Source of the DNA: a virus
Lineage: Duplodnaviria; Heunggongvirae; Uroviricota; Caudoviricetes
IMG/VR virus record: IMGVR_UViG_2657244961_000001
DNA: 28,214 nt
Strand: one strand, 5' to 3'
This document shows positions 2,921 to 28,081 of this stretch, piece by piece; the first letter of the stretch is position 1; every line of letters starts with the position of its first letter. The notes beneath the pieces are model-generated. The model worked only from the letters and a program-made list of their open reading frames with translations. It was not told where the DNA came from and ran no database searches. Made by a program: the position numbers and the translations under genes.

Positions 2921-3343
2921 ATGCAGCATGATTTATTTGAACACGATCCGGCAATTCGCCAGTTAATCGGACACATTGATAACATCCCGGCCCCGGAACT
3001 GGAATCACGCTGGCCCCGTTCGGTGGTTGATCTGATTGATGTTCTGGAAAACGAACTGAAACGCCAGAACGTCAGCAATCCCCGTGAGCTTGCCCGTAAA
3101 CAGGCCGTTGCCCTGTCCTGTTTTCTGGGCGGGCGGCAGTTTTACATCCCCTGCGGCGATACGATCCTGACCGCGTTACGCGACGATTTGCTTTACTGCC
3201 AGTTCAATGGTCGTAACATGGAAGAACTGCGTCGCCAGTATCGCCTGTCCCAGCCGCAGATCTACCAGATTATTGCCCGCCAGAGAAAGCTGCATACACG
3301 ACGTCATCAGCCTGATCTGTTCTCACCTGAAAGCCAGAAATAA
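2921..3343 (+). CDS. C: C-like late transcription activator (Mor/C family)
   Basis: 140 aa; ATG preceded by GGGGGAAAAT; shares the C-terminal FNGRN...Y..I motif region with the Mor-like protein; sits directly upstream of the endolysin. Confidence 0.75.
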   Translation: MQHDLFEHDPAIRQLIGHIDNIPAPELESRWPRSVVDLIDVLENELKRQNVSNPRELARKQAVALSCFLGGRQFYIPCGDTILTALRDDLLYCQFNGRNMEELRRQYRLSQPQIYQIIARQRKLHTRRHQPDLFSPESQK

Positions 3344-3366
3344 CCGGCATCCTGCCGGTTATTTCC
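3342..3366 (+). terminator. hairpin overlapping the C stop codon (8-bp perfect stem AACCGGCA/TGCCGGTT, 3-nt loop), possible middle-transcript terminator
   Basis: Perfect inverted repeat at 3342-3360 followed by ATTTCC; the U tract is weak. Confidence 0.3.
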
Positions 3367-3377
3367 TGTCACCATAA

Positions 3378-3387
3378 TCCCGCACCT
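3378..3387 (+). promoter_or_regulatory. TCCCGCACCT motif, candidate late-promoter element upstream of lys
   Basis: Identical 10-mer recurs at 11229-11238 upstream of the I-like gene, at a similar distance from the start codon. Confidence 0.3.
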
Positions 3388-3434
3388 GCCATCTGATTTT
3401 TTAGACTGCCATCAGCGCATTTTTTCAGGGAAGC

Positions 3435-3953
3435 ATGATGGCGGGGATACCAAAAAAACTGAAAGCCGCACTGCTGGCGGCAACGATTGCCGGTGGCGGT
3501 GTGGGTGGTTATCAGGAAATGACCCGTCAGTCTCTGATCCATCTGGAAAATATCGCTTATATGCCTTACCGCGATATTGCCGGTGTGCTTACGGTCTGTG
3601 TGGGACATACCGGGCCGGATATCGAAATGCGCCGTTACAGCCATGCGGAGTGTATGGCTCTCCTCGACAGTGATTTAAAACCGGTTTATGCGGCAATCGA
3701 TCGTCTTGTCAGGGTGCCGCTGACGCCATATCAGAAAACGGCGCTGGCAACGTTTATTTTCAACACCGGTGTTACCGCATTCAGTAAATCAACGCTGCTG
3801 AAAAAACTCAATGCCGGTGATTACGCCGGAGCGCGTGACCAGATGGCCCGCTGGGTGTTTGCCGCAGGCCATAAATGGAAAGGACTGATGAACCGTCGCG
3901 AAGTGGAAATGGCTATCTGGAATATCAGGGGGGCGGATGACCTTCGCCAGTAA
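3435..3953 (+). CDS. lys: endolysin, T4-lysozyme-like with N-terminal signal-anchor-release (SAR) domain
   Basis: 172 aa; Gly/Ala-rich weakly hydrophobic N-terminus LKAALLAATIAGGGVGG followed by an E...D...T arrangement (LENIAYMPYRDIAGVLT). Confidence 0.85.
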   Translation: MMAGIPKKLKAALLAATIAGGGVGGYQEMTRQSLIHLENIAYMPYRDIAGVLTVCVGHTGPDIEMRRYSHAECMALLDSDLKPVYAAIDRLVRVPLTPYQKTALATFIFNTGVTAFSKSTLLKKLNAGDYAGARDQMARWVFAAGHKWKGLMNRREVEMAIWNIRGADDLRQ

Positions 3954-5273: not shown

Positions 5274-5849
5274 ATGGACAGGAAAACACGGGGCCGGGCT
5301 TCAAAAGTGGATTTACTGCCGGAAAACGTACGTAAAACGCTGCATGAAATGCTGCGTGATAAAGCGATCCCACAGGCCCGCATTCTGGAAGAAATTAACG
5401 CACTGATTGAAGACGCTGGCCTGCCGGATGAGATGAAACTCTCCCGTTCCGGTCTGAACCGTTACGCGACGAACGTCGAGCAGGTAGGCCATAACCTGCG
5501 ACAGATGCGTGAAATGACGTCAGCACTGACCGCAGAACTTGGCGACAAGCCAATGGGAGAAACCACAAAGCTGATTCTGGAAATGGCCCGCAGCCAGCTT
5601 TTTAAGGCCATGATGCGGCAAATCGAAAACCCGGAATCTGACGTGGATATTGACCTGCTGAAAAATGCCATGCTGGCGGCACAGCGTCTGGAATCCACGG
5701 CAATGTCCAGCCACCGGCGCGAGAAAGAAATCCGCCAGGCGTTCGCAGAAGAAGCGGCAAACGCTGTCAGTGAAGAACTGCGCGGGCAGGATGGCATCAG
5801 CGAAGAACTGGAGCAGCGCATCCGTGATGTACTGCTGGGGAAAGCGTAG
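5274..5849 (+). CDS. putative terminase small subunit-like protein
   Basis: ATG at 5274 preceded by AGGAGG (5264-5269); acidic, helical protein directly upstream of the large terminase; function assigned by position only. Confidence 0.55.
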   Translation: MDRKTRGRASKVDLLPENVRKTLHEMLRDKAIPQARILEEINALIEDAGLPDEMKLSRSGLNRYATNVEQVGHNLRQMREMTSALTAELGDKPMGETTKLILEMARSQLFKAMMRQIENPESDVDIDLLKNAMLAAQRLESTAMSSHRREKEIRQAFAEEAANAVSEELRGQDGISEELEQRIRDVLLGKA

Positions 5850-5859
5850 GCGTTACGTT

Positions 5860-6030
5860 ATGAAAAATAATTACAAAGCACAGCTAATCAGTGCCCATAA
5901 AAAAGCCTTCAGGATTGCAACATTGTCTGATGTCCGGTTGATACACCAGATTCGGGATGTGCTTGTTCAGGCCATGGCTTCAGGCAATTCATGGCATACC
6001 ACCATAAAGCAACTAAGGATGTTGTCCTGA
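5860..6030 (+). CDS. hypothetical 56-aa ORF between the terminase genes
   Basis: Internal ATG of six-frame ORF 5665..6030; weak ribosome-binding site. Confidence 0.25.
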   Translation: MKNNYKAQLISAHKKAFRIATLSDVRLIHQIRDVLVQAMASGNSWHTTIKQLRMLS

Positions 6031-6123
6031 GGAGATGAAAATGGCGGATGCCCGGCGACGGCAGGTCAGGTGATCGGTTGTTCCTGGATTCGCCGGTAAC
6101 GTTTTACACCGGATTTTTCACCC

Positions 6124-7779: not shown

Positions 7780-9317
7780 TGGGCCGTATTCTGGATATTT
7801 CCGGGCAGCCGTTTGATTTTGACGATGAAATGCAGACCCGCAGCGATGAGCTGGCAATGGTCATGAAGCGCACGCAGGAGCATCCTTCCAGTGGTGTGAC
7901 GCCGAACCGGGCCGCGCAGATGCTGCGTGATGCCGAACGCGGTGATCTGACAGCACAGGCTGACCTGGCCTTTGATATGGAAGAAAAGGACACCCACCTT
8001 TTTTCCGAACTGAGCAAGCGCCGCCTTGCCATTCAGGCGCTGGAATGGCGCATCGCTCCGGCACGTGATGCCAGCGCACAGGAGAAAAAAGACGCTGACA
8101 TGCTGAATGAATATCTGCATGATGCGGCGTGGTTTGAAGATGCCCTGTTTGATGCCGGTGATGCCATTCTCAAGGGCTATTCCATGCAGGAGATTGAATG
8201 GGGCTGGCTGGGGAAAATGCGCGTGCCGGTAGTGCTGCATCATCGCGATCCGGCGCTGTTCTGCGCGAACCCCGACAATCTGAACGAATTACGCCTGCGT
8301 GATGCGTCTTATCACGGGCTGGAGCTGCAACCGTTCGGCTGGTTTATGCACCGGGCCAAATCCCGCACCGGGTACGTTGGCACCAATGGCCTTGTGCGCA
8401 CGCTTATCTGGCCTTTTATTTTTAAAAACTATTCCGTGCGTGATTTTGCAGAGTTTCTGGAAATTTACGGACTCCCCATGCGCGTCGGTAAATATCCGAC
8501 CGGCTCCACGAACCGTGAGAAAGCCACGCTGATGCAGGCCGTGATGGATATCGGGCGACGTGCCGGTGGCATTATTCCGATGGGGATGACGCTGGATTTT
8601 CAGAGCGCCGCAGATGGTCAGTCAGACCCCTTTATGGCGATGATTGGCTGGGCAGAAAAAGCGATTTCAAAAGCCATTCTGGGCGGCACCCTGACCACAG
8701 AGGCTGGCGATAAAGGTGCACGGTCGCTGGGTGAAGTGCATGATGAGGTTCGCCGGGAAATCCGTAACGCGGATGTGGGCCAGCTTGCCCGCAGTATTAA
8801 CCGTGACCTGATTTATCCCCTGCTGGCACTGAACAGTGACAGCACCATTGATATTAACCGCCTGCCGGGCATTGTATTTGATACCAGTGAAGCGGGTGAT
8901 ATTACGGCACTGTCTGACGCCATTCCGAAACTGGCGGCGGGAATGCGTATTCCGGTCTCCTGGATACAGGAAAAACTCCATATTCCACAGCCGGTCGGTG
9001 ACGAAGCCGTGTTTACTGCTCAACCGGTTGTCCCGGATAACGGTCCGCAGAAAGAAGCCGCATTATCCGCTGATGATATCCCGCAGGAGGATGATATCGA
9101 CCGGATGGGCGTTTCACCGGAAGACTGGCAGCGTTCGGTTGATCCACTGCTGAAACCCGTCATTCTTTCTGTGCTGAAAGATGGCCCGGAAGCCGCCATG
9201 AACAAAGCCGCTTCATTATATCCGCAGATGGATGATGCAGAACTTATCGACATGCTGACCCGTGCCATTTTTGTTGCCGATATATGGGGGCGTCTGGATG
9301 CCGCAGCAGACCATTGA
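7779..9317 (+). CDS. portal protein (Mu gp29-like)
   Basis: 512 aa; TAATG overlap with terminase; GAGGGGG upstream. Confidence 0.85.
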   Translation: MGRILDISGQPFDFDDEMQTRSDELAMVMKRTQEHPSSGVTPNRAAQMLRDAERGDLTAQADLAFDMEEKDTHLFSELSKRRLAIQALEWRIAPARDASAQEKKDADMLNEYLHDAAWFEDALFDAGDAILKGYSMQEIEWGWLGKMRVPVVLHHRDPALFCANPDNLNELRLRDASYHGLELQPFGWFMHRAKSRTGYVGTNGLVRTLIWPFIFKNYSVRDFAEFLEIYGLPMRVGKYPTGSTNREKATLMQAVMDIGRRAGGIIPMGMTLDFQSAADGQSDPFMAMIGWAEKAISKAILGGTLTTEAGDKGARSLGEVHDEVRREIRNADVGQLARSINRDLIYPLLALNSDSTIDINRLPGIVFDTSEAGDITALSDAIPKLAAGMRIPVSWIQEKLHIPQPVGDEAVFTAQPVVPDNGPQKEAALSADDIPQEDDIDRMGVSPEDWQRSVDPLLKPVILSVLKDGPEAAMNKAASLYPQMDDAELIDMLTRAIFVADIWGRLDAAADH

Positions 9318-10617
9318 TCTGGCGTATGCCGCACGCCTCCCGCCAAAGGAGGCTGTCGCGTATTTCCGCGCCAAAGGCTACAACATCACCTGGAACTGGT
9401 ACGAACAACTGGCAGACGCGCACGCCCGCGCCTTTACCGTTGCCAAAGCCACCCGGATGGATGTACTGACCACAATCCGTGAGGAAGTGGAGCGGGCTGT
9501 CAGTGAAGGCATCACCCGTGAGGAATTTACCCGCACACTGGCCCCCCGGCTGCAAAAACTCGGATGGTGGGGAAAACAAATCATCGTGGATGCAGACGGA
9601 AACGCAAAGGTAATCGAGCTGGGCAGTCCGCGTCGTCTGGCAACCATTTATAACGTCAATACCCGTACGGCGTACGGGGCGGGACGTTATGCGCAGATGA
9701 TGAATACCGCCGATTTGTACCCGTACTGGCAGTACGTTGCCGTTATGGATGGCAGAACACGCCCGGAACATGCGCGGCTGCATAATATGGTTTTCCGGTA
9801 TGACGACATTTTCTGGCAAACGCATTACCCGCCCAATGGCTGGAACTGCCGCTGTCGCGTCCGGGCGCTGTCTGCGGCCCGCATGAAAGAACTGGGGCTA
9901 CAGGTCAGTTATGGTGCGTCATTCATGAATACCCGCGAAGTGGATGCCGGTACGGATGAAAGCACCGGAGAGATTTTCCGCACATCGTCAACCACGTTTG
10001 ACAACGGTCGGGTAAAAATGACGCCGGATGTGGGCTGGTCATATAACCCCGGTTCGGCGGCATTTGGTACGGATCAGGCACTGATTCGAAAACTGGTGGA
10101 AGTTCGTGACGCGCAGCTGCGTGAGCAGGTTGTTCAGACGCTGAATAACAGCCGGGAGCGTCAGCTTGCTTTTTCCCTCTGGCTTAAACGTCTGGCGAAA
10201 TCACGCCGGGCCGGACATGAGGTCCGTGCGCTGGGGTTTATGACGGAAGCCGTGGCGGAGGCCGTATATCAGCGCACCGGGAATATGCCAGCCCGTCTGC
10301 TTGTGATGAACGGAAAAAGTCTGGCGACCACTGCTGATGCCGCCCTGAAACCGGAGGATTTACAGCGTCTGCCGTCACTGATGGCAAAACCACAGGCGGT
10401 ATTGTGGGACAGGGAGAACCACCAGTTGCTGTATGTTGTGGCAACCCGCGACGGCACTGCAAAAGTTGTGGTCAGAACATCGCAGGCTGTCAGCAAACAG
10501 AATGACCGGGCGGATGTGCTGGTCAGTATCAGCCGCGTATCTGCACAGTCGCTTGAAGCCGCGATTGCTGACGGGATGATTGACGTACTGGAGGGGTATG
10601 TGGAGGTGAATAAGTGA
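9298..10617 (+). CDS. F: head morphogenesis protein, Mu F-like
   Basis: Contains WQYVAVMDGRTRPEHARLHNMVFRYDD and WNCRCRV, recognised as Mu F-like; ATG 9298 chosen, GTG 9262 is an alternative. Confidence 0.8.
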   Translation: MPQQTIDLAYAARLPPKEAVAYFRAKGYNITWNWYEQLADAHARAFTVAKATRMDVLTTIREEVERAVSEGITREEFTRTLAPRLQKLGWWGKQIIVDADGNAKVIELGSPRRLATIYNVNTRTAYGAGRYAQMMNTADLYPYWQYVAVMDGRTRPEHARLHNMVFRYDDIFWQTHYPPNGWNCRCRVRALSAARMKELGLQVSYGASFMNTREVDAGTDESTGEIFRTSSTTFDNGRVKMTPDVGWSYNPGSAAFGTDQALIRKLVEVRDAQLREQVVQTLNNSRERQLAFSLWLKRLAKSRRAGHEVRALGFMTEAVAEAVYQRTGNMPARLLVMNGKSLATTADAALKPEDLQRLPSLMAKPQAVLWDRENHQLLYVVATRDGTAKVVVRTSQAVSKQNDRADVLVSISRVSAQSLEAAIADGMIDVLEGYVEVNK

Positions 10618-11084: not shown

Positions 11085-11131
11085 ACAGAATCAGGCATAA
11101 AATCAGCCGCACAGATTTTTTAAAACGCGCC

Positions 11132-11178
11132 ACGGGATTTTTAAACCGGTATTTAACGGTGTATGAATCCCGTTTTAT
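11132..11178 (+). terminator. inverted repeat ACGGGATT(26 nt)AATCCCGT followed by TTTTAT, possible terminator or regulatory structure after the F/G genes
   Basis: 8-bp perfect inverted repeat read from the sequence; loop is long for a simple terminator. Confidence 0.25.
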
Positions 11179-11228
11179 CTTCCTTCCACTTTCTTTCTCC
11201 AGTACTCAAATAGCATAACCCCAGATTT

Positions 11229-11238
11229 TCCCGCACCT
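11229..11238 (+). promoter_or_regulatory. TCCCGCACCT motif, candidate late-promoter element upstream of the I-like gene
   Basis: Same 10-mer as 3378-3387; lies 43 bp upstream of the ATG at 11281. Confidence 0.3.
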
Positions 11239-11280
11239 CCCGCAAACTGACTGCTCACAAACCATGATGAGCAGCAGGAC

Positions 11281-12366
11281 ATGAAAAAACACGCGATTGG
11301 CATTGCCGCACTGAGTGCGCTGTCCATTGACGATGACGGCTGGTGCCAGCTATTGCCTGCCGGTCATTTCAGTGCCCGTGATGGTCGTCCGTTTGATGTA
11401 ACAGGCGGTCAGGGGTGGTTCATCGACGGTGAGATTGCCGGGCGTCTGGTTGAAGGCGTTCGCGCACTCAACCAGGACGTGCTGATTGATTACGAGCATA
11501 ACCAGCTACGTAAGGACAAAGGATTACCCCCGGAACAACTTGTCGCGGCTGGCTGGTTTAACGCCGATGAAATGCAGTGGCGTGAAGGTGAAGGATTATT
11601 TATCCACCCACGCTGGACGGCGGCGGCACAGCAGCGCATCGATGACGGCGAATTTGGTTATCTCTCTGCGGTTTTTCCGTATGACACCGCCACCGGTGCG
11701 GTGCTGCAAATCCGCCTTGCTGCGCTGACCAATGACCCCGGTGCCACCGGCATGAAAAAGCTGACCGCACTGGCGGCAGACCTTCCCGACATCCTTCAAC
11801 AGGAGAACAAACCCATGAATGAAACGCTGCGCAAGCTGCTTGCGCGTCTTGGGGTGACGGTCCCCGAAAATGCAGACATCACCGATGAACAGGCCAGCGC
11901 GGCCCTGAGTGCGCTTGATGCGCTCGAAACAGATGCCGGAAAAGTGGCGTCGTTATCCGCCGAACTGGAAAAGGCACAGAAAGCCGCCGTTGACCTGACG
12001 AAATACGTCCCGGTGGAAAGCTACAACGCCCTGCGTGATGAACTGGCACAGGCGACTGCACAAAGCGCCACAGCCAGCCTGAGCGCCGTTCTGGACAAGG
12101 CGGAACAGGAAGGCCGCATTTTCAAAAGCGAACGCACTTACCTGGAACAGCTTGGCGGTCAGATTGGCGTGGCGGCACTGTCGGCACAGCTTGAGAAAAA
12201 ACAGCCCATCGCTGCGTTATCTGCCATGCAGACCACCACAGCGAAAATTCCGTCGCAGGAAAAACCGGCGGTGGCGGTGCTGTCTGCTGATGAACAGGCA
12301 GCAGTGAAGGCGCTCGGCATTACAGAGGCTGAGTATCTGAAAATGAAACAGGAACAAGAAAAATGA
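11281..12366 (+). CDS. I: head maturation protease / scaffold protein, Mu I-like
   Basis: 361 aa; N-terminal half protease-like, C-terminal half Ala/Glu/Lys-rich coiled-coil-like; position before major capsid gene. Confidence 0.85.
   Translation: MKKHAIGIAALSALSIDDDGWCQLLPAGHFSARDGRPFDVTGGQGWFIDGEIAGRLVEGVRALNQDVLIDYEHNQLRKDKGLPPEQLVAAGWFNADEMQWREGEGLFIHPRWTAAAQQRIDDGEFGYLSAVFPYDTATGAVLQIRLAALTNDPGATGMKKLTALAADLPDILQQENKPMNETLRKLLARLGVTVPENADITDEQASAALSALDALETDAGKVASLSAELEKAQKAAVDLTKYVPVESYNALRDELAQATAQSATASLSAVLDKAEQEGRIFKSERTYLEQLGGQIGVAALSAQLEKKQPIAALSAMQTTTAKIPSQEKPAVAVLSADEQAAVKALGITEAEYLKMKQEQEK
11815..12366 (+). CDS. possible nested in-frame scaffold protein (Mu Z-like) from an internal start
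   Basis: In-frame ATG at 11815 preceded by AGGAG (11801-11805); downstream product is the helical Ala-rich C-terminal domain. Confidence 0.35.
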   Translation: MNETLRKLLARLGVTVPENADITDEQASAALSALDALETDAGKVASLSAELEKAQKAAVDLTKYVPVESYNALRDELAQATAQSATASLSAVLDKAEQEGRIFKSERTYLEQLGGQIGVAALSAQLEKKQPIAALSAMQTTTAKIPSQEKPAVAVLSADEQAAVKALGITEAEYLKMKQEQEK

Positions 12367-13757: not shown

Positions 13758-14179
13758 ATTACGCGACAGTAAATGACCTGTGCGCCCGCTATACACGTAC
13801 GCGGCTGGATATTCTCACCCGCCCTAAAACAGCGGACGGTCAGCCGGATGATGCCGTGGCAGAACAGGCACTGGCAGATGCTTCGGCCTTTATTGATGGC
13901 TATCTCGCCGCGCGCTTTGTTCTGCCGCTTACCGTCGTCCCCTCACTGCTGAAACGGCAGTGTTGCGTGGTGGCCTGGTTTTATCTGAATGAATCACAAC
14001 CCACAGAGCAGATCACCGCAACTTACAGGGACACGGTGCGCTGGCTGGAACAGGTGCGCGATGGCAAAACAGATCCCGGTGTGGAAAGCAGGACGGCAGC
14101 CTCGCCGGATGGCGAAAACCTTGTGCAGGTGCAGTCTGACACGCCGGTCTTCTCACGAAAACAGAAGGGGTTTATCTGA
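13754..14179 (+). CDS. head-tail connector/neck-region protein (Mu gp36-like)
   Basis: 141 aa; ATGA overlap upstream; position. Confidence 0.6.
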   Translation: MNYATVNDLCARYTRTRLDILTRPKTADGQPDDAVAEQALADASAFIDGYLAARFVLPLTVVPSLLKRQCCVVAWFYLNESQPTEQITATYRDTVRWLEQVRDGKTDPGVESRTAASPDGENLVQVQSDTPVFSRKQKGFI

Positions 14180-17355: not shown

Positions 17356-19428
17356 ATGACCGGGAAACGCTTAAAGGCGTCTGTCATTATTGATCTTAAT
17401 GGCAATCTTTCCCGGCGTTCCCGCCAGTATTCGAACCAGATAAACGCCCTGTCCCGTAGCGGGCAAAGTTCCCTTCGTGCCCTGCGTATGGAGGTTGTGC
17501 GCGTTTCTGGTGCCATTGACAGAATGGGTTCACTGTCAACCCGTACATTCCGAATGCTGTCAGCCGGGGCGCTGGGTATCGCTGGTGTGGGTTACACCGC
17601 CAATAAACTGTTTATTGGTGCAGCCGCCCAGCGTGAGCAGCAGATCATCGCCATGAACTCGCTGTATCACGGCGATAAGGTCAGAGCGCAGGCCATGATG
17701 GCCTGGGCAAAGCAGAACGCGAAGGACACCACGTGGGGGCTGAGTGGTGTTCTGGATGAGATCCGTTCGTCGAAAGGCTTCGGCATGACGGATGAACAGA
17801 CGAAACAGTTCATCACCATGTTGCAGGATCAGGGGGCCATGCACGGCTGGGATTTACCCACTGCCCAGGGTGCCTCACTGCAACTGAAACAGATGTTTGC
17901 CCGCCAGCAAATCACAGCGGCGGATGCCAACCTGCTGACCGGTTACGGTATCAACGTTTATCAGGCGCTGGCGGATGCAACGGGAACGGACGTTAAAAAA
18001 ATCCGTGATCTGGGTACAAAGGGCAAGCTGGGCCTGAAATCCATTCTGACGGTATTCAGAACGCTGTCAGAACAGTCAAAAGGTGCACAGGCCAGTGCGA
18101 TGAACTCCTGGGACGGGATGTTCGCCCAGATGGAAGCCAACCTGCTTGAATTTCGCATAAAGGTGGCAAACAGCGGCCCCTTTGAAGAAATCAAGAACGA
18201 GATGCGCCGGGTGCTTAACTGGCACGACATGGCGGATAAATCCGGGGAGCTTGACGCACTGGCAGAAAACATTGGTCAGAAATTTCTGACCACGTTCAGA
18301 ACGGTAAAAATCGCGGCGCAGGAGTTATGGCGCTGGCTGAAACCGGGTAAAGATGCGCTGGCATGGGTTGACCAGAATATTGTCAGCCTGAAAAAACTGG
18401 CTGCTGTTCTGGTGTCTGTCTGGCTTGCCAATAAAGCCCTGAGAGCAGGCTGGGCTGTGGCAAAACCCTCATGGCAGGTTGCCAGTTATCCGTTTAAAAC
18501 CGGGCGTCGTATGTGGCGCTGGATGCGAAACCGCAAACGTGGGCAGGCAGGTCTGCCGGTCCCGGATGCCATGACGTCTGAGACGCTGTTGCAGGGTATC
18601 GGCATTCAGCGTGTGTTTGTCATCAACTGGCCCCGTGGATTTGGTGGCTACGGGAGTGGCGGCGGTCGTCGCGTACGGAGCGGCGGAAGAATGGCCCCGC
18701 TGTTACCCCGCCAGCCGTTATTGCTGTCCGGGCCACAGCCGCTGGCATTACCTGCACCACGCCCTGTACTGGCATTACCCCCACCCGGCGTACCGGTAAC
18801 GGCACGGCCTGCACCATTACCTTTACCCGGTAAATCCGGTCTTCTGAGCAGGCTTGCAGGCAGTGCTGCCGGGCAACTGGTTACGGGAACGGTCGGAAAG
18901 CTGGCTGATGCCGGGCGTGCCGTTGGCGGGTGGTTTTCCGGTATCGGAAACAAACTTGCAGGCAGTGCGATCGGTCGGGTTGTGACAAAAGGTGCCGGGG
19001 CGCTGGGCTGGATGGGGAAAGGTGCCGGTCGTGCGTTGTCACGTCTGGGTGGCCCGGTAATGGGGGCACTCCAGCTTGCCCCCGTCCTGATGGATGAGCA
19101 GGCGTCAACCCATGAAAAAGCAGGCGCAATTGGCAGTACAGCCGGTGCATGGCTCGGCGGTGCCGTTGGCAGCCTTGCCGGACCGCTGGGTACGGTTGCC
19201 GGTGCCACGCTGGGCAGTGTCGCCGGGGAGTATCTGGGCGGTTTTGTAACCGACCTGTATCAGAAATGGACGGCCCCGGATAAGGAGCCGCAGGAGCAAA
19301 AAGTGAATGCGGAAGCCTCGCTGCGCGTCGAACTTGGCGAGGGGTTACGTCTGACCAGTTCCCGCGTCACCGAGGACGGTATGGGGCTGAATATTTACGC
19401 GGGCGATAACTACATTACGGGCTGGTAA
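17356..19428 (+). CDS. tail tape measure protein
   Basis: 690 aa; position after chaperone; Pro/Ala- and Gly-rich repetitive segment in the C-terminal third. Confidence 0.85.
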
Positions 19429-19432
19429 AACC

Positions 19433-20920
19433 ATGTTTGAAGATGCTTTAAATGCCGTTAATGCTGTCCGGGATAAAACCGGTGGAGGCAGGAAAACAAC
19501 CGGCAAAGGCACGTTCCGTAACGTGCCGTTTCTCGTCATCGAGGAGCAAAAACAGGCTGGCGGACGTCGCCTGGTTAAACGCGAGTACCCGTTACGTGAT
19601 ACCGGCGGCGTCAATGACCTGGGGAAAAAGCTTCGCTCCCGTACATTCAGCGTCTGCATTCTGAACAGTAACGCAGAAACAGCCAGAGATGAAGCGGGTG
19701 CGCTGATGGATGCTCTTGATGCTCCGGGCAGCGGTGAGCTGGTACATCCTGATTTCGGCACTGTGGACGTCATGGTGGATTCATGGGAATGCCGCACTAA
19801 AGCGGATGAACTGAATTATTACGCGTTCACCGTTACCGTTTATCCGTCATTGCAGGATACTGCCCCGGACGCAGAAACAGACACCAGTGCAGCCGTACCG
19901 GCACAGGCCGTTGCTGTAACCGGTTCTCTGGGAGATACGCTGTCCTCTGTCTGGCAGACCGTAAAAGATGGCACTGCGGCGGCAACCGCCGTGATGGAAG
20001 CTGTAACCGGTATCATCGATGATATCAGTGATGCGGTGGACAATCTGGGGGTTACGCAGACTGTCAGCGGTCTGATGGGATCGCTTTCTGCGATGAAAGG
20101 CTCTGTGACCAGCCTGATTAACCAGCCTGCCATGCTGGCCTCCTCGCTGATGGGGGCGCTGTCCGGCGTTTCATCGTTATGCGATACCCGGACAGCATTT
20201 TCCACATGGAACCGTCTGGCGCAGCGATTCGAACGTCGCCATACTGCCACCGCAGGCAGACAGGGGACAATCACAACCTCGTACAACAGTCCGGTTGCAG
20301 AAAAAAATATTGCCACACTGAACTACGTCATGCTGGCGGCGGCACAAACATACCGGGCAGAAGCTGCCAGCCAGGCACTGACTGCGGCACTGGATTTCAG
20401 TCGCCGGATGGATAATGCCGCCCGTGCACCTGTACTGGATGCCCCGTCCACCACAACCGGCACAGCCAGCGGGGCCAGCAGCACATCTGCTACCGTCACA
20501 CAGGGACAGTTACAGTTAACTGCCATAACCCCGGACGGCGGCTTTTCACCAGTATCCTTTTCAGACAGTAGCACAGCCACGCCCCCGGTATTTGAAAGCG
20601 TGTCCGATATCGAAAAAACAACTGCCATGCTGGGGGCGGCGCTGGATAGCGTCATTCTGACGGCATCTGAGCAGGGTTTTTCGACAGACAGTGTTCAGCT
20701 TACGCAACTGCGTCTGCTGGTTGTTGCCGACCTGGAAAAACGCGGGCTGCAACTGGCGGGCAGTGAAACGCACCGCCTGCCGGAGACGATGCCTGCAATG
20801 GTGGCCCTGTACCGTTACACAGGAAACAGCCGGAACTGGCAACGGCTGGCCCGCAGGAACGGTATCAGCAACCCGTTGTTTGTTCCCGGCGGTGTCAGTA
20901 TTGAGGTGATTAATGAGTAA
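19433..20920 (+). CDS. DNA circularisation protein-like tail protein (Mu gp43 family)
   Basis: 495 aa; position after tape measure. Confidence 0.75.
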
Positions 20921-27181: not shown

Positions 27182-28081
27182 TTAAATACTTCCCGCGTTA
27201 TACCAAGTGCCATTGATACAATACTGCACAGGTCTTGCCTGAGTTGTATCAATAAGTTCGTCCTTATTTGAGTTGATTGAGGCAGTAACAACATAACCAG
27301 ATTTATCGTTCCAACCAGGACCATTCCATGTTTGCACTGACGATTTTGTACCTAATCGAATACCTGTAATAAATCGTGAATTACATTCTGCTTTGGTATA
27401 TGCACCAACATCTCCCGCTGATGGCTTACGTGTTGTAGTGTAAAATTCCGACCAGTCGGCTTCAAAGCCATAACCGTCACGCGCAGAACGATAATAAATA
27501 CCGCCGTTCTTATAATTCACGCGGAACTGAACAGCCGGACAACTACCAGCTCCCATATAAAAATGAAGAATTAACGTAGATGCTCCACCAATATTTGCGT
27601 TATAAACCCCGCTAATTGAGTTCCATCCAACAGCTTTGTCATTTCCAACTGTGCTTCCTGTCTGCCCTAAAGCAAATGCAGGTTGTTGATTTTTCGTGTT
27701 GTAGTCTCGTCGCCAGCCAGGAGCGTAAGCATCACCATGATTGATATAAGTGAATTGAGCGTTAGTAATTCCGCCACCGCTGGACGTGCTCGGCGTGGTA
27801 ACGCGTATGGTCATTGCGCCGCGAGTGCCAATAACTTCCACCACAGCACCTGCAAGACAAATATTCCCGCAACCTGTATCTGTAATGACCTTATTATTTG
27901 TATAAGCCCATGAGCCTTTGCACATCCAGTAAGGATGGTTAAATGCTCCCTGACTCTCCAGCCACGAAATAAATTGCGCGGTTGTCCAGACCTGACTATC
28001 GCCACCAATATTCAGCCATGCGCTATATGCGCGGCAGGGGCACTGTTGCAAAGTTAGCGATGAGGCAGCCTTTTGTCTTAT
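27182..28081 (-). CDS. alternative tail fibre C-terminal cassette S' (open frame with no ATG or ribosome-binding site of its own)
   Basis: Frame open on - strand from 28081 to the stop at 27182-27184; C-terminus ...[33 protein letters not shown] parallels S ...[33 protein letters not shown]; the track's start at 28051 is a TTG. Confidence 0.6.

Follow-up and report, generated by a model that had tools for sequence, protein, structure and literature searches.

Does a 10-bp sequence that recurs exactly ahead of two late gene blocks of a Mu-like phage form the shared site through which the late activator C would switch these genes on? The sequence, TCCCGCACCT, has exactly two copies in the window (the whole 28,214-nucleotide stretch analyzed here), both on the plus strand: the first, at 3378-3387, ends 48 nt before the ATG of lys (3435), and the second, at 11229-11238, ends 43 nt before the ATG of gene I (11281). 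A sequence-only reading had reported these coordinates and distances, which are confirmed, and had named the two gaps as the place where C-dependent late promoters would be expected. That expectation is borne out by comparison with phage Mu, which places both copies inside the mapped C-dependent late promoters Plys and PI of a Mu relative, with a gene of the Mor/C family upstream of Plys. The locus and the 10-bp match are already known, and Plys and PI are textbook Mu promoters; the earlier work on them is reportedly that of Margolin, Rao and Howe (1989) and Chiang and Howe (1993). The match between the lys and I promoters was also marked by Swapna et al. 2015 in their Fig. 1B, with no function assigned to it (PMC4461284). 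A role of the 10-mer as the shared C-responsive element, which the sequence-only reading implied, was not supported, and the promoter register, the comparison with homologous promoters, and the statistics of the match are set out below.

The window is a relative of phage Mu

In both flagged regions the window is 98-99% identical in nucleotide sequence to Mu, D108, and SfMu, and likewise to related Yersinia and Escherichia phages. The Mu reference was the curated record AF083977, in which four 67-bp late promoter features are annotated, citing PMID 2522923. The genes and terminators around the two copies of the 10-mer are as follows.

2921..3343, plus strand: gene C, late transcription activator of the Mor/C family, 140 aa (Pfam PF08765 Mor, E 9e-34)
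3341..3364, plus strand: hairpin and T-tract after C, a terminator in Mu (mapped from Mu feature 10383-10406)
3435..3953, plus strand: lys, SAR endolysin/phage lysozyme (Pfam PF00959, E 1e-37; Mu annotation)
11133..11178, plus strand: terminator between gene G and PI, as predicted in Mu (position carried over from Mu feature 17908-17953)
11281..12366, plus strand: gene I, head maturation protease/scaffold (Pfam PF10123, Mu-like prophage I protein, E 2e-97; Mu annotation)

Gene C lies directly upstream of Plys in the same element, and its product is 98-100% identical to C of Mu and related phages. C also requires the β sliding clamp (PMC12867686), and the two clamp-binding motifs reported in 2026 for MuC, the N-terminal QHDLF and a QPDLF close to the C terminus, are both present in the window C. 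In C homologues of 54-67% identity the C-terminal motif is invariant, and the N-terminal one keeps only Qx[D/E]LF (QSELF, QNDLF). The lys start is taken here as the ATG at 3435; the Mu annotation uses the second ATG, at 3438. The terminator sequence after C, CCGGCATCCTGCCGGTTATTT, is identical in the window and Mu and abuts and overlaps the left edge of the Plys C box, and the one after G is near-identical to that of Mu. A simple terminator scan of the window flagged neither of these two terminators, which are annotated in Mu by TransTermHP. The G-I gap, the largest of the late region, also holds the position of the gyrase cut site annotated in Mu (Mu 17879/17880; window ~11104-11105), and it is long because that position and the predicted terminator (~11133-11178) both lie there.

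Other differences from Mu, and one further promoter, lie away from the two flagged sites. Between the small and large terminase genes the window carries about 267 bp more than Mu (window 5850-6123), where the Mu gap is 7 bp; this added segment includes an overlapping ORF of 121 aa (5665-6030) as well as a short one that starts at 6035, and across it the coordinate offset from window to Mu shifts from 7042 to 6775. An 88-aa ORF on the minus strand (855-1121) overlaps the position of the small plus-strand gene Mu_54 of Mu. By offset from Mu feature 9163-9233, the Mor-activated promoter Pm lies at ~2121-2191. Mu Pm resembles the late promoters in its activator family, its dyad centered at -43.5, its poor -35, and its use of σ70 holoenzyme, but it differs from them in its recognition sequence and activator and in its dependence on the α-CTD and σ-CTD (PMC2582627).

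Promoter anatomy and register

In Mu, C dependence of the late promoters has been demonstrated both in vitro and in vivo (PMC4461284, PMC2582627). At Plys there is a 16-bp imperfect dyad centered at -43.5 and a C footprint from about -30 to -55, and mutagenesis of the promoter identified as required a 19-bp region, -52 to -34, plus the -10 (PMC2582627); bases just downstream of the dyad matter (PMC2582627, PMC4461284). The consensus of the C site is TTAT-N5-6-ATAA (PMC12867686). C acts at the closed-to-open complex step at Plys, PI, and PP and requires the σ70 holoenzyme, and PP behaves like Plys and PI in vitro (PMC4461284). C was described as dimeric, and a 2025 cryo-EM preprint presents it as a tetramer that covers about three turns of the helix. 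The corresponding features of the window are these.

3361..3427, plus strand: late promoter Plys, 67 bp, with a probable +1 near 3414 (Mu feature 10403-10469, "Late promoter activated by C, PMID 2522923")
3362..3380, plus strand: C-response element of Plys, -52 to -34 (from the four-promoter register and the values of PMC2582627; a conserved block in divergent homologues)
3378..3387, plus strand: copy 1 of the 10-mer, TCCCGCACCT, at -36 to -27 of Plys (offsets 17-26)
3402..3407, plus strand: Plys -10 hexamer TAGACT, 24 bp downstream of ATAA, a spacing that recurs in all homologous promoters examined
11202..11268, plus strand: late promoter PI, 67 bp, with a probable +1 near 11255 (Mu feature 17977-18043, "late promoter, PMID 2522923")
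11204..11221, plus strand: C box of PI (CTCA-N6-ATAA) and conserved CCC block, in register with Plys, PP, and Pmom and conserved in PI homologues
11229..11238, plus strand: copy 2 of the 10-mer, TCCCGCACCT, at -26 to -17 of PI (offsets 27-36), in the spacer between C box and -10
11243..11248, plus strand: PI -10 hexamer CAAACT, 24 bp downstream of ATAA (from the four-promoter register and homologues)
20512..20578, plus strand: late promoter PP, inside gene N, with box ATAACCCC and -10 TATCCT (Mu feature 27287-27353)

The PI of the window is identical to that of Mu at 67 of 67 positions and Plys at 64 of 67, its three substitutions (at about -24, +3, and +5) all falling outside the 10-mer, the C box, and the -10; PP is found with four mismatches to Mu, and Pmom lies past the end of the window. 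Plys and PI thus match their Mu counterparts in flanking genes (C-lys and G-I), C box, -10, and spacing, and show what marks the Mu late promoter class: the same gene context, a -10 without a -35, and a C box 24 bp upstream of the -10. A consensus scan for a σ70 -35/-10 pair found none in either the Plys or the PI region, where the -35 positions read CCCGCA and CCCAGA; CCCGCA, at -35 to -30 of Plys, matches TTGACA at two of six positions and is not -35-like. From this near-identity to Mu we infer that transcription from both promoters depends on C: with a -10 present and a usable -35 absent, C, as a Mor-family protein, would bind the imperfect dyad at -43.5 and, at Plys, PI, and PP, would let σ70 RNA polymerase pass from the closed to the open complex.

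No gaps are needed to align the four Mu features, and each of them has ATAA at offsets 13-16, followed by (T/C)C(C/A)C. The -10 hexamer occupies offsets 41-46 in Plys (TAGACT), PI (CAAACT), and PP (TATCCT), and that of Pmom, TAAGAT, lies one position later. Pmom carries a perfect TTAT-N6-ATAA at offsets 3-16, whose center is -43.5 if +1 is offset 53, and the imperfect dyad of Plys, TCCT-N6-ATAA at 3364-3377, is likewise centered at -43.5, so that the register agrees with the published dyad center (PMC2582627) and consensus (PMC12867686). The +1 sites, as well as the absence of an effect of mutations from -33 to -13, are taken from secondary summaries, the Mu GenBank features, and the present register.

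Placed in this register, the two copies of the 10-mer are displaced from each other by 10 bp relative to both the C box and the -10. In the Plys copy the first three to four bases form the conserved YCCC block beside the C box and the remainder covers the position of a would-be -35 hexamer, whereas the PI copy lies one helical turn farther downstream, in variable spacer; its last base begins a second TCCCGCA (11238-11244) that runs into the -10. A possible second promoter in PI, with the 10-mer as a shifted flank of a C box, was considered and rejected, since the sequence at 24 bp downstream (GCTCAC, 11253-11258) is not a -10. Mu PP and Pmom are like Plys and PI in being C-dependent and in having the ATAA(C)C(C/A)C box in the same register, with the -10 24-25 bp downstream, but they lack the 10-mer in the four aligned features; in addition, PP lies inside gene N, and Pmom uses an additional recruitment step (PMC4461284). 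Direct reading of TCCCGCACCT found no internal dyad symmetry.

Conservation among homologous promoters

Homologous promoters were collected from IMG/VR and GTDB prophages, either downstream of C homologues (54-67% identity) or upstream of I homologues (50-77%); a scan of genome contigs with the C alignment gave five loci. In every lineage compared, an [AG][TG]AA four-mer is followed, after exactly 24 nt, by an NAnnnT hexamer. Conservation was measured as the mean information content per position over 17 lineage-representative promoters and amounts to 0.76 bits for the C box, 1.19 bits for the four bases after it (YCCC), and 0.86 bits for the -10 hexamer, compared with 0.30 bits for offsets 21-26 and 0.17 bits for offsets 27-36. 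C makes up 33-58% of the spacers and pyrimidines 54-88% (62% or more in all but Mu PP), and the spacer sequence is not conserved. Divergent Plys homologues read TCCCCGATAC, TCACCTCTCT, TCCCTGACCA, and TCCCCGCCAG at the positions equivalent to the 10-mer, keeping only TC(C/A)C, and in divergent PI homologues the equivalent positions are unrelated. In the sister clade, Plys and PI both carry GTCAGATACCGGAATC(C/A)CC in register, which is how a true activator site would be expected to behave across promoters. The elements common to all four late promoters and to the divergent homologues are the C box, an adjoining YCCC on its downstream side, and a -10 exactly 24 bp on.

Among close relatives the two copies of the 10-mer have fared differently. 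The Plys copy is invariant in 21 of 21 close relatives from IMG/VR. The PI copy is polymorphic: it reads CCCCGCCCCT in one relative (L043), in which two of only three substitutions in 170 bp fall in the 10-mer, and two of the 10 copies from metagenomes have CCCCGCACCT and CCCCGCCCCT. Another relative (L031/L135; IMGVR_UViG_2531839192_000008) combines an I protein 100% identical to that of the window with a G-I intergenic region and a PI spacer that have clearly diverged, so that a boundary of mosaic recombination falls at the promoter or close to it. Beyond the promoters, the endolysin (the lys homologue) of L026 and L065 (Erwinia tracheiphila prophage) is lengthened in its N-terminal region by several tandem copies of a 9-bp repeat, CCCCAAAAG.

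The geometry of box, 24 nt, and -10 persists in distant Mu-like prophages with I proteins of 45-53% identity, in the form CTGA-N6-ACAA, 24 nt, then CATTAT or CAAAAT. These prophages share with Mu the succession of a 4-mer, N6, [AG]NAA, 24 nt, and a -10, but they differ in the box itself (CTGA-N6-ACAA), in a -10 only 6-9 nt before the ATG, and in the absence of the 10-mer. In this clade (L162-L213) the box is found some 50 nt ahead of the I start, and a Shine-Dalgarno sequence is absent; with the -10 so close to the ATG, the I mRNA is therefore probably leaderless or nearly so. Two apparent matches were rejected as out of register under the 24-bp geometry, one between CCCGCAAACT of Mu PI and the CCGCAAAC box of the distant phages and the other between AATCCCGCA of L163 and Mu Plys.

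Occurrence of the 10-mer and the odds of a chance match

The motif alone is not unique, as the sequence-only reading had itself stated, and counting confirms that it is not enriched: with up to one mismatch allowed, the window holds 4 copies versus 2.17 expected, and 18 of 100 shuffles reach 4. One of the two 9/10 copies is the match that had been noted inside the portal gene, which exists but lies at 8361-8370 (plus strand) rather than 8371-8380; the other is at 14052-14061 on the minus strand. TCCCGC is not enriched either (25 versus 19.2 expected). Two TCCCGC copies had also been pointed out upstream of the tape measure gene; they are present (17277 and 17285), but in coding sequence, not in a promoter, where a -2 frameshift extends the tail assembly chaperone; this part shows 98.3% collinearity with Mu, and its frame is open to 17341. 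The third late promoter is PP inside gene N, and none lies at the TCCCGC pair.

How surprising the exact match is depends on what is compared. There are 1301 exact same-strand 10-mer pairs in the window, and a 10-mer common to some two of the seven noncoding gaps arises in 25% of shuffles that preserve dinucleotides. A word of at least 10 nt common to the two flagged gaps alone occurs in 3.2% of shuffles, and one common to the two 67-bp promoters alone in 0.4% of dinucleotide shuffles. The match is thus nominally unusual only if the two promoters are picked in advance.

Two other repeated words were encountered. The 10-mer TGAAAATGGC, also common to noncoding gaps (1007 and 6036), was judged unrelated, its copy at 1007 lying in a minus-strand ORF and that at 6036 in a short ORF context. 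An exact 11-mer, ACCGGGGGAAA, at 2190-2200 and 2908-2918, lies 5 nt ahead of the ATG at 2206 (an E18-like ORF) and 2 nt ahead of that at 2921 (C) and constitutes a shared, unusual ribosome-binding context of these two genes. The ribosome-binding site of C has been called peculiar and inefficient (PMC12867686).

What the 10-mer is

Because the 10-mer is out of register, absent from PP and Pmom, and unconserved, it is not the shared C-responsive element; what would be expected of a C operator, namely presence in every C-dependent promoter, a fixed position, a dyad, and conservation, is in each respect not what is found. On the alignments above, only the first three to four bases of the Plys copy appear to belong to the C-response element, and the rest of that copy, together with the whole of the PI copy, reads as sequence-tolerant spacer. 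Our preferred reading, to which we assign a probability of about 0.85, is that the 10-mer is a lineage-specific coincidence, or a remnant of shared ancestry, in C- and pyrimidine-rich spacers, and does not itself contribute to recognition by C. Three observations count against coincidence. The 0.4% figure is not comfortable for a pair picked in advance, the 10-bp displacement is one helical turn and so would leave both copies on the same face of the DNA, and the Plys copy is invariant in all 21 close relatives.

One possible though not favored account of the match is that the two promoters recombined, or underwent partial duplication between them, in the ancestor of the Mu clade and left it as a functionless trace. 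Similarity does extend slightly beyond the 10-mer, with 14 of 18 positions matching between CATAATCCCGCACCTGCC and GATTTTCCCGCACCTCCC, and promoter regions are mosaic boundaries, as the relative with an identical I and a diverged upstream region illustrates; however, the similarity decays within 2-4 bases on each side, and no intermediate forms occur among the relatives sampled.

An active role in the spacer is improbable. The 10-mer would here be a Mu-clade element of the spacer or -35 region, read on the same face of the helix by RNA polymerase, or by C and polymerase together, and tuning open-complex formation at Plys and PI. The same three observations, the rarity of the match in shuffles, the shift by one turn, and the invariance of the Plys copy, speak for it, as does the action of C at isomerization at these promoters, where bases immediately downstream of the dyad matter. 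PP, however, shows the in vitro behavior of Plys and PI in the absence of the motif, one or two substitutions are tolerated in the PI copy of natural relatives, mutagenesis of Plys found only -52 to -34 and the -10 to be required (PMC2582627), and there is no conservation outside the Mu clade. We consider it marginally less probable again that such an element, independently of the C box, sets how strongly or when the lysis and head operons are expressed relative to each other.

Least credible, to the point of being very nearly dismissed, is that the 10-mer is the recognition sequence of C, or an essential part of it, common to the late promoters: although it stands upstream of two late gene blocks and the first seven bases of its Plys copy fall within the C footprint (-55 to -30) and the first three within the required -52 to -34 (PMC2582627 with the present register), that copy lies mostly outside the required region (PMC2582627), the two copies are shifted by 10 bp against C box and -10, PP and Pmom are C-dependent without it, it has no dyad where C binds the dyad TTAT-N5-6-ATAA centered at -43.5 (PMC2582627, PMC12867686), and divergent homologues conserve the real box and not the 10-mer, the sister clade having GTCAGATACCGGAATC in register in both promoters.

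An inverted repeat across the late promoters and start codons

A different feature of the two leaders does recur between lineages. In PI, the sequence that begins at the end of the -10 and reaches the start codon of I folds as a hairpin in which 11247-11259 pairs with 11265-11277 (-14.7 kcal/mol). Hairpins were assessed by folding each sequence against versions with a shuffled 5' part, and that of the window PI has a z of -5 against such shuffles. A PI-type hairpin is found in all eight lineages close to Mu, with different arms (ATGGCCT/AGGCCAT, ATGACCT/AGGTCAT, ATGGTCCG/CGGACCAT, and CTGCTCA/TGAGCAG); p is at most 0.04 for each, and Fisher's method gives a combined p of 8e-13, for lineages that are not fully independent of one another. 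At Plys, 3406-3414 pairs with 3436-3444, start codon included, and a corresponding hairpin is found in four of six lineages (Fisher combined p 5e-4). Of 25 distinct sequences from the distant clade, 15 carry a short inverted repeat on either side of the -10 that reaches up to the ATG, with stems that covary. Homologues with the inverted repeat comprise L031, L045-L063, L090-L099, and L162-L213, and here too the stems covary between lineages. In a MAFFT alignment of the PI leaders, in which indels misalign the arms, RNAalifold recovered only six outer pairs and one compensatory pair.

The 3' arm of the PI hairpin covers the Shine-Dalgarno region, the AUG, or both, and the 5' arm lies at about -8 to +5. 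With its 5' arm located at +1 or upstream of it, the hairpin could arise only on RNA that reads through; RNA started at PI would lack that arm and is predicted to be unstructured (0 to -2.8 kcal/mol). Read-through past the upstream terminators would carry the middle transcript into lys and the lys operon into I. The most coherent reading suggests fold-back inhibition, in which the start site would be sequestered on read-through RNA and only promoter-initiated RNA translated. The arrangement resembles the fold-back inhibition of IS10. A search of the literature for a hairpin or fold-back inhibition in the leader of Mu lys or I found no description of either.

Implications for the Mu family

The 10-mer is unsuited as a signature of C-dependent promoters. 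The diagnostic signature is instead the C box with its YCCC and a -10 hexamer 24 bp downstream, which holds down to an I identity of about 45% and correctly finds PP in gene N. If the fold-back reading is true, silencing of lys and I on read-through RNA could explain how the late functions of these phages, especially lysis, are insulated from middle transcription.
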